From assembly GCF_044324785.1 (NCBI RefSeq), contig NZ_CP172127.1: 64,000 nucleotides of DNA; one strand, written 5' to 3'. Below the pieces are notes generated by a model that saw nothing but the letters and a program-made list of their open reading frames with translations, was not told where the DNA came from and made no database searches. The number at the start of each line of letters is the position of its first letter. Within the stretch, counting starts at the first letter, position 1. The stretch is from Escherichia coli. Lineage in GTDB: Bacteria > Pseudomonadota > Gammaproteobacteria > Enterobacterales > Enterobacteriaceae. Positions 22,672-23,036 of the stretch are shown here, piece by piece. The translations under genes and the position numbers were made by a program.

Positions 22672-23036
22672 ACCATAGACAACATGAATATTAATGTTAC
22701 TATCTGGTTGAGACTGTTGATAAAACGTAAAAAGGAATGTTCTGTTCCTGCAACTGAACAGGCGTGAAACGCTATCCAACAGGATGGATACCGTTTTGTC
22801 AGCCAGTTTTATAGATCACACTTATGAGTATGCGTGTTTCATTTACGGCCAGGAATGCTGATGATGACAACATTACTACCCGTTTTCACTAAGCCTTCCC
22901 CATTGGCGCTCAATGCTCTGCGCGCTGGTCGTATTTGCCGTTTCCTTCTTATCCCGGATGGAAGAATCCGCTGAACGTCGTTCGGCGGCAGTTGTAACAC
23001 GCGTCGTTTGTTTACAGGGATTATGGCGGGTCGATT

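Follow-up and report, generated by a model that had tools for sequence, protein, structure and literature searches.

In regulatory systems of the tnaC-tnaAB type a short leader ORF precedes the structural genes, a rut site adjoins or overlaps the leader, and Rho terminates transcription before the first of these genes is reached; TnaC depends on free tryptophan and on particular residues that are conserved. A short leader ORF, with a hairpin near its stop codon, is also the hallmark of trpL, hisL, leuL and thrL. The proteins AcrZ, KdpF and MgtS, all of less than 50 aa and some of them encoded beside transporter genes, are single-pass membrane helices. The mdtU-mdtJI transporter operon carries a translated uORF in its 5' UTR, with Rho-dependent RNA 3' ends a short distance downstream of the uORF, and the reporter fusion is de-repressed in the rhoR66S mutant; the C-terminal peptide of MdtU is conserved in at least 17 genera and the trigger is spermidine (bioRxiv 10.1101/2020.07.18.207399).

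The Escherichia coli DNA analysed here, a stretch of 64,000 nt to which we refer as the window, contains the yhiI-rbbA-yhhJ operon and, in its 5' leader, a small ORF that we identify below as yhiY (Table 1). By analogy, yhiY appears to work most like the uORF-linked Rho attenuators represented by mdtU-mdtJI: both uORFs are translated within the 5' UTR of a transporter operon and are soon followed by Rho-dependent 3' ends, and in both systems a fusion, here that of yhiI, is de-repressed in rhoR66S; in addition, a region that is rut-like in composition overlaps the uORF. We suggest that yhiY probably helps to control early transcription termination in the yhiI-rbbA-yhhJ leader. The two uORFs differ in that yhiY is conserved at its start region, at the nucleotide level, and its C-terminus is lost or frame-shifted in several genera. 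Unlike in TnaC, neither equivalent conserved residues nor a ligand are evident in YhiY. With the trpL type it has in common the short leader ORF and a hairpin near the stop codon, but apart from the MM and TT pairs it has no series of regulatory codons, and the termination is Rho-dependent; a scan of the region 22500-23200 found zero intrinsic terminator-like sites, and we rejected both the intrinsic-terminator reading in E. coli and, given also the absence of tandem regulatory codons, a classical terminator attenuator. As for AcrZ, KdpF and MgtS, the likeness is limited to size and to the position beside transporter genes: YhiY is strongly basic and has no hydrophobic span long enough for a single membrane helix, and it was therefore discarded as a membrane mini-protein.

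Table 1. Features of the yhiY leader and of the neighbouring genes, with positions in the window
Feature	Position	Strand	Basis or remark
yhiJ, DUF4049 gene	21049-22671		ends 365 nt before yhiI
sigma-70 promoter of yhiY-yhiI-rbbA-yhhJ	22676-22703	+	consensus scan: TAGACA, 16-nt spacer, TACTAT
5' end of the yhiI 5' UTR, probable TSS	22710	+	fusion primer GAGACTGTTGATAAAACGTAAAAAGG of Adams et al. begins here
Extra leader segment of ~96 nt	22710-22805	+	only in K-12-like E. coli; predicted self-contained stem-loop
Conserved leader block	22824-22880	+	invariant columns in alignments of 15 and 70 leaders
P1, 5' strand AUGCGUGUUUC	22830-22840	+	predicted pairing with 22994-23004
P2, 5' strand UACGGCCAG	22844-22852	+	predicted pairing with 22925-22933; runs into the yhiY SD
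Candidate rut region	22845-22949	+	sliding-window C/G 1.5-2.1; lies inside yhiY
yhiY Shine-Dalgarno, AGGA	22851-22854	+	GGA invariant across 70 leaders
Open frame flagged earlier	22855-22974	+	39 codons, then TGA; peptide identical to the one quoted
yhiY CDS MMTTLLPVFTKPSPLALNALRAGRICRFLLIPDGRIR	22861-22974	+	RefSeq WP_001296785.1, b4790; 37 codons and TGA
P2, 3' strand CUGGUCGUA	22925-22933	+	inside yhiY codons 22-25
P3, predicted hairpin	22942-22963	+	over the FLLIPDG codons; loop segment AUCCCGGA
P4, predicted hairpin CCGCUGAA-CGUCG-UUCGGCGG	22968-22988	+	contains the yhiY stop (22972-22974)
Term-seq RNA 3' ends	22972 and 22994	+	MG1655 3630667 and 3630645; bioRxiv 10.1101/2020.07.18.207399, Supplement 3
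P1, 3' strand GUAACACGCGU	22994-23004	+	ends 32 nt before the yhiI ATG
yhiI, HlyD-family periplasmic adaptor (HlyD_3)	23037-24104	+	first gene of the regulated operon
rbbA, ABC ATPase-permease fusion	24101-26836	+	Pfam ABC_tran and ABC2_membrane

The sequence-only reading of this DNA had pointed to an ORF of 37-39 codons with an AGGA ribosome-binding site, about 60 bp 5' of yhiI on the same strand, and had considered it a possible small protein, a possible regulatory leader of an efflux-like operon or a chance ORF. The ORF, its peptide and its position were all found as described. The maximal ORF in the same frame extends from a GTG over 22834-22974 (+) and contains three ATGs, at 22855, 22861 and 22864, from which the AGGA is spaced by 0, 6 and 9 nt, respectively. 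Since it directly abuts the ATG at 22855, the AGGA is unable to serve that codon. Of the two lengths proposed, the 37 aa counted from the second ATG stand, and the start at the first ATG does not. A gap of 62 nt separates the end of the stop codon from the yhiI ATG, on the same strand.

The length of the ORF alone is not above chance, as other ORFs, of 39, 43 and 72 codons, occur on both strands of the 365-nt gap. A Pfam search of the other ORFs tested in this gap gave no match, and the antisense ORF of 72 codons and the overlapping one of 43 codons were rejected as genes on this ground. For the flagged ORF, instead, every test that was run indicated the same family. Its translation matched the Pfam family PF23514 'YhiY' with 103.1 bits, against a gathering cutoff of 27, over residues 1-37 of a 37-position model; in NCBIfam there is no HMM for the 37-aa peptide. 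When the segment 22672-23060 was used as megablast query against 5,426 complete E. coli genomes, 5,412 of them were matched, each with a single match, and the RefSeq feature 'yhiY: protein YhiY' was present at the matched site in 29 out of 30 evenly sampled E. coli records; two records mapped back to the window gave yhiY at 22861-22974, with a product identical to WP_001296785.1. The counterpart in MG1655 is b4790 (3630665-3630778, minus strand; protein accession YP_010051203.1), and the K-12 gene is the same gene, with an identical 37-aa product and the same position, strand and start codon; the leader of the window is 99.2-99.7% identical to K-12-type records, with few substitutions. The neighbours of the gene are yhiJ (or yhiM) on one side and, ~62 nt downstream and on the same strand, yhiI. 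The flagged ORF is therefore yhiY, a gene that is already known, being annotated, included in Pfam and experimentally detected. Because of the RefSeq annotation, the Pfam match and the published translation and protein data, the ORF was judged real and its origin by chance was rejected.

Transcription of the operon appears to start shortly upstream of this ORF. The -10 hexamer TACTAT of the promoter is preceded by TG, and the same TAGACA-16-TACTAT arrangement is the constitutive RpoD promoter reported for yhiI-rbbA-yhhJ in the list of Shimada et al. (PMC3946193). Homologous TAGACA or TGGACA and TGnTAGTAT elements are kept in other genera, including Hafnia. The probable transcription start site is 7 nt past the -10 hexamer, which gives a 5' leader of 327 nt for yhiI-rbbA-yhhJ. 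The first ~96 nt of this leader are present, in single copy, in 4282 of the 5426 E. coli genomes, and are missing in B2-type E. coli, in E. albertii and in all the other genera, in which the promoter abuts the conserved block described below. The segment was also considered as a mobile repeat, which its single copy rules out; by its presence, the 5' UTR before yhiY grows from roughly 45 nt to 151 nt. The same count of 4282 genomes holds the upstream part of the intergenic region beside yhiJ. In the B2-type strains (positions 1-1001 in L003 and L005) yhiJ and a second DUF4049 gene, which in L001 sits further upstream of yhiJ, are both missing and yhiM adjoins the yhiY promoter, so that the yhiJ region is a variable islet. 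At the other end of the leader, yhiI is followed by rbbA, whose start overlaps the yhiI stop (ATGA, 24101-24104) in the usual translational-coupling arrangement within an operon, and by yhhJ, an ABC-2 permease, as the third gene.

The expression of yhiY has been documented in several published data sets. In the report of Weaver et al., the gene, named 'ORF9/yhiY', was identified by ribosome profiling with Onc112 and retapamulin, and the spacing of the ribosome density led the authors to choose the second of the three AUGs (bioRxiv 10.1101/511675). This density at the second AUG answers the ribosome profiling check that the sequence-only reading had proposed. More recently, the protein was detected by top-down, DIA and PRM mass spectrometry in several growth conditions, with an estimated abundance of ~1000-3000 copies per cell (2025; PMC12529367). 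Annotation as b4790, profiling of initiation complexes and detection by mass spectrometry thus bear out the suggestion that the ORF encodes a small protein. On the side of transcription termination, Adams et al. observed that a yhiI fusion comprising the 5' UTR and the ORF increased more than 2-fold in rhoR66S, listed yhiY-yhiI among nine validated, uncharacterised uORFs followed within 200 nt by an RNA 3' end, and flagged these uORFs as possible Rho-attenuation leaders; in that study yhiY-yhiI is a candidate pair only (bioRxiv 10.1101/2020.07.18.207399). The leader role was hence already a published working hypothesis, founded on the Rho-sensitive fusion and the uORF list, and our comparative analysis favours it. 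The two Term-seq ends of the same study, whose coordinates were carried to the window via the MG1655 record, sit 65 and 43 nt 5' of the yhiI ATG; for the one at -43, which is tagged 'uORF', the Rho score is significant (3.34) and the intrinsic-terminator score is 2.1, against a threshold of 3.0 (bioRxiv 10.1101/2020.07.18.207399). One of these ends is on the yhiY stop codon and the other is 6 nt past the hairpin P4.

To compare the leaders, each species was represented by the yhiI locus of a single genome, and further leaders were retrieved from metagenome contigs with the invariant core as a pattern, for a total of 70 distinct leaders. The columns that are invariant among them (ATGCGTGTTTCATTT..GGC..GGA..GCTGA.GATGAC.ACA) form a block that spans the ribosome-binding site of the uORF and its first 4-6 codons. 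About 45 nt, that is a leader 11-mer, the AGGA and the MMTT codons, are nearly invariant from Escherichia to Klebsiella and Kluyvera, and promoter-like elements and block are kept together in Escherichia, Citrobacter, Pseudocitrobacter, Salmonella, Kluyvera, Klebsiella and Raoultella. The AGGA, at least one correctly spaced AUG and M(M)TT were found in 70/70 leaders; in the Kluyvera-type ones, one AUG is gone and the next is kept. More distant relatives were also inspected. Hafnia alvei (L028:2710-3010) has a TAGACA-16-TAGTAT promoter, a diverged block (ATGTGTTTGTTTCATTCA) and a uORF of 50 codons (MKTSIV...) that ends ~50 nt before yhiI and is followed by a long U-rich tract; a terminator suspected there by eye was discarded, as the scan found no canonical hairpin and the leader fold had z = 0.57. 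The block was sought 5' of yhiI in Proteus, Providencia, Morganella and 40-odd distant homologues, among which only chance 12-14-mers were found.

Three GGA triplets are invariant in 70/70 leaders, namely in the yhiY Shine-Dalgarno (22852-22854), within 23013-23021 and over yhiI codons 1-2 (23039-23041). The middle one, 18 nt before the yhiI ATG, is inside UACAGGGAU (23013-23021), which by eye we take to resemble the CsrA binding consensus. Also by eye, the Shine-Dalgarno of yhiI itself (GCGGG or GCGAG) looks weak; a resemblance to a Fur box, seen by eye only, is not claimed here.

The body of the ORF behaves differently from its start. The overall length of the uORF ranges from 3 to >90 codons. 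It has 37 codons in Escherichia. The 45-codon version of Salmonella, C. amalonaticus and Pseudocitrobacter uses the same stop and ends in frame with FLLIP(D/E)G..R; in the C. freundii group the 46 codons are frame-shifted relative to the 'FLLIPDG' nucleotides, whose sequence persists although the MMTT start is in another frame, and the 45 codons of Escherichia sp. E1V33 are frame-shifted as well. One metagenome lineage has 15 codons. In Klebsiella, Raoultella and Enterobacter sp. 10-1 the uORF exceeds 62 codons and crosses the yhiI start in another frame, and in four Kluyvera-type leaders (L020, L148, L190, L201) it is reduced to 3-4 codons (MTT-stop or MMTT-stop) and ~100 nt of the body, including the 3' strand of P2, P3 and P4, are deleted, with the block and the P1 partner retained. 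The C-terminal FLLIP(D/E)G motif is absent in Klebsiella and Kluyvera. Therefore, of the conservation across Enterobacteriaceae that the sequence-only reading had indicated as a check, Shine-Dalgarno, AUG and M(M)TT are kept, and length and reading frame of the ORF are not.

The substitution pattern within Escherichia changes along the gene. Codons 1-9 show zero substitutions, synonymous ones included, codons 10-27 are near neutral (pN/pS 0.75), and changes in codons 28-37 are mostly synonymous (pN/pS 0.05, on about five independent sites); over the whole ORF, pN/pS is 0.51-0.53 in the yhiY frame vs 0.8-0.97 in the other two frames. Because of the synonymous change in the C-terminal 10 codons and the lower pN/pS of the yhiY frame, some peptide-level constraint may exist in Escherichia. 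The uORF frame evolves neutrally in the C. freundii group (pN/pS 0.90 overall and 1.0 after codon 9, with no third-position bias), and in Klebsiella its pN/pS of 0.65 is no better than that of another frame (0.55). Moreover, natural E. coli variants interrupt the gene: in L124 (3863-4116) an 8-nt duplication of TCCCGGAT shifts the yhiY frame, in L163 (4904-5149) an AGA to TGA change at codon 35 creates a premature stop, and in L004 (1491-1598) the first five codons are lost to an IS1A insertion; rbbA of this strain contains an internal stop and is a pseudogene. Taken as a pattern of sequence change, the conservation points to the RNA or to the position of the ORF, not to the peptide.

A second small ORF, MSMRVSFTARNADDDNITTRFH (MSMRVSF..., 22824-22892, +), overlaps yhiY, and its AUG is inside the 5' strand of P1. 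In the C. freundii group its frame is open for 55 codons to the common stop, contains FLLIPDGISR and has the lowest pN/pS of that group (0.42 vs 0.9 for the MMTT frame). This ORF was disfavoured, since Pseudocitrobacter has ACG in place of its ATG, the number of its codons ranges from 20 to 81 and the ribosome density fits the MMTT start.

Four helices, P1 to P4, are predicted in the leader RNA, and moderate support for them came from the comparison among species, short of establishing the structure. P1, which has the invariant leader 11-mer as its 5' strand and would enclose the uORF, was present in the minimum-energy folds of at least 14 of 21 species folded independently and in the RNAalifold consensus of the 70 leaders, in which 91% of cells are paired; it recurs across genera despite unrelated sequence in between, and in 6 of 8 lineages its partner precedes the yhiI ATG by 31-32 nt. 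Nearly all the changes at the five variable positions of its 3' strand are A/G or C/U and compatible with pairing, and one pair occurs as U-A, U-G and C-G. In P2 (88% of cells paired) one pair changes from C-G to A-U between the Escherichia and Klebsiella groups (16 sequences). The loop segment of P3 is unvarying in the Escherichia, Citrobacter and Salmonella leaders of alignment A2, and P4 showed pair probabilities of 0.9-0.99 in every folded construct, 97.6% of cells paired, and compatible and some compensatory changes. Over the four helices, 90.8% of cells can pair, a share that drops to 35-42% if the 3' strands are displaced by 1-3 columns; double-sided covariation is sparse, being found in 4 pairs. 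Thermodynamic stability was dropped as a support, as the fold energy is no better than that of shuffled sequences (z of +0.16 in E. coli, -1.14 in Citrobacter and -1.53 in Klebsiella), and a P1 partner equally good arises by chance in 4-10% of single-sequence shuffles. A search of Rfam 15 gave two hits only, with E = 6.6 and 9.6, both far below the gathering scores.

The fold with P1 and P2 is the minimum-energy structure of the E. coli leader up to 23036. When the first 24 nt of yhiI are added, a competing fold ~4 kcal/mol more stable is predicted, in which the 3' half of yhiY (22903-22948) pairs with the ribosome-binding site and the first codons of yhiI (23017-23056), leaving the SD-AUG region of yhiI with a mean unpaired probability of 0.12. 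Among the species folded, this competing structure is the minimum-energy one in E. coli only.

The composition of the leader is C-rich and G-poor in the candidate rut region only; from 22980 into yhiI, C/G falls to 0.35-0.6. The published 3' ends are 20-150 nt downstream of the C-rich stretch. At Rho terminators, trimming by exonucleases back to a stable hairpin would leave 3' ends at positions such as the stop codon and the far side of P4. On these grounds we consider it an even chance that yhiY is a cis-acting uORF whose translation limits Rho loading. Transcription would begin at the constitutive sigma-70 promoter, and ribosomes would initiate at the AUG at 22861 and then cover the C-rich body of the uORF, which would be the only plausible Rho loading site in the leader. 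If the uORF were not translated, Rho could load and terminate at the junction between uORF and yhiI and inside yhiI, which would leave short RNAs with 3' ends at or just past the stop-codon hairpin P4. A possible cause of such a lack of translation is P2, which would sequester part of the AGGA within the fold closed by P1. The frequency of initiation at the uORF would thus set the share of transcripts reaching yhiI, and might itself depend on P2 and P1 or on a factor recognising the invariant block. Three parts of this model are inferred: the control of the extent of Rho termination by uORF translation, the formation of P1-P4 in vivo and the dispensability of most of the peptide sequence.

Two observations count against a general validity of this model. 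First, because a 4-codon ORF as that of Kluyvera could not shield a downstream rut site, shielding as described cannot hold in every lineage; judging from the sequences, the Kluyvera mini-ORF and the Klebsiella overlap leave no single geometry for the whole clade, and this is the main weakness of any model. Second, YhiY accumulates to measurable levels, which a pure leader peptide would not need, and this counts against a role exclusively in cis.

A different explanation is that YhiY is an arrest peptide sensing an effector, similarly to TnaC, MdtU, SpeFL and ToiL, and that its stalling blocks Rho or remodels the leader: a small molecule or a translation inhibitor would trigger the stall and switch on the efflux-like operon, the candidate stall sites being the MMTT(L) start or the IP(D/E)G..R-stop end inside P4. 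The published Rho and uORF data apply equally to this possibility. It is in agreement also with the presence of MMTT in 70/70 leaders, as the sole ORF remnant in Kluyvera, with the in-frame FLLIP(D/E)G..R end of Escherichia, Salmonella, C. amalonaticus and Pseudocitrobacter and its mostly synonymous change within Escherichia, with a stop codon embedded in the conserved predicted hairpin P4 and with a downstream putative exporter whose ATPase is annotated as ribosome-associated. However, beyond four residues no one segment is conserved clade-wide, the C-terminal motif being missing from Klebsiella and Kluyvera and shifted to another frame both in the C. freundii group and in Escherichia sp. E1V33; the invariance of MMTT includes synonymous sites and untranslated upstream nucleotides, and a constraint on the RNA or on the initiation site fits it equally well. 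Moreover, a full-text literature search found no report of a condition inducing yhiI or rbbA. On balance, we regard an arrest peptide as unlikely.

YhiY could, instead, act in trans, for example as an accessory or a regulator of YhiI-RbbA-YhhJ in the manner of AcrZ, KdpF and MgtS, and the position of its gene would simply ensure co-expression. Its ~1000-3000 copies per cell in several growth conditions (PMC12529367), the location beside transporter genes, the curation by Pfam as a protein family and the lower pN/pS of the yhiY frame in Escherichia are what would be expected of such a protein. On the other hand, YhiY has no transmembrane-like segment (the best 19-residue Kyte-Doolittle mean is 0.99), and contains 4 prolines and 6 K/R vs 1 D/E; the peptide is unconserved outside close relatives though operon and leader are conserved, it evolves near neutrality in Citrobacter, and the variants of E. 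coli described above truncate or shift it. A function in trans appears, therefore, rather doubtful to us.

With a similarly low expectation, the yhiY leader might be an as yet undescribed cis-regulatory RNA of Enterobacteriaceae that gates an exporter operon via Rho. As a candidate architecture, itself put forward with considerable reserve, such an RNA would consist of a constitutive promoter, the ~45-nt invariant block with an MMTT mini-ORF, and P1 closing the uORF domain. It is equally speculative that it would sense the state of translation, a ligand or a protein, and that the 37-aa YhiY would be a lineage-specific by-product.

Finally, that the translation of the ORF is incidental, and that the element is a DNA or RNA signal (an operator, an sRNA or CsrA site, an mRNA-stability structure) containing an SD-AUG, is very improbable: the block is indeed invariant at all codon positions and extends 5' of the ORF, whose body drifts freely, and three GGA triplets are invariant in the leaders, with UACAGGGAU resembling the CsrA consensus by eye, but the AGGA and a correctly spaced AUG are kept in 70/70 leaders, Kluyvera included, the G-U pairs and the transition-only changes in the 3' strand of P1 fit RNA pairing over a DNA repeat, and both ribosome density and protein levels are substantial.

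Returning to translation-limited Rho loading, the comparison of 70 leaders adds to the published data a start region that does not vary, a peptide body that seems dispensable, a helix that may enclose the uORF and, within the ORF itself, a base composition resembling that of a rut site. This suggests that the act of translating yhiY may outweigh the E. coli peptide itself, and further effort might be rewarded in one respect, the architecture that the leaders have conserved around a minimal MMTT ORF. YhiI-RbbA-YhhJ is a poorly understood ABC system, and what opens its leader would hint at the purpose of the system.
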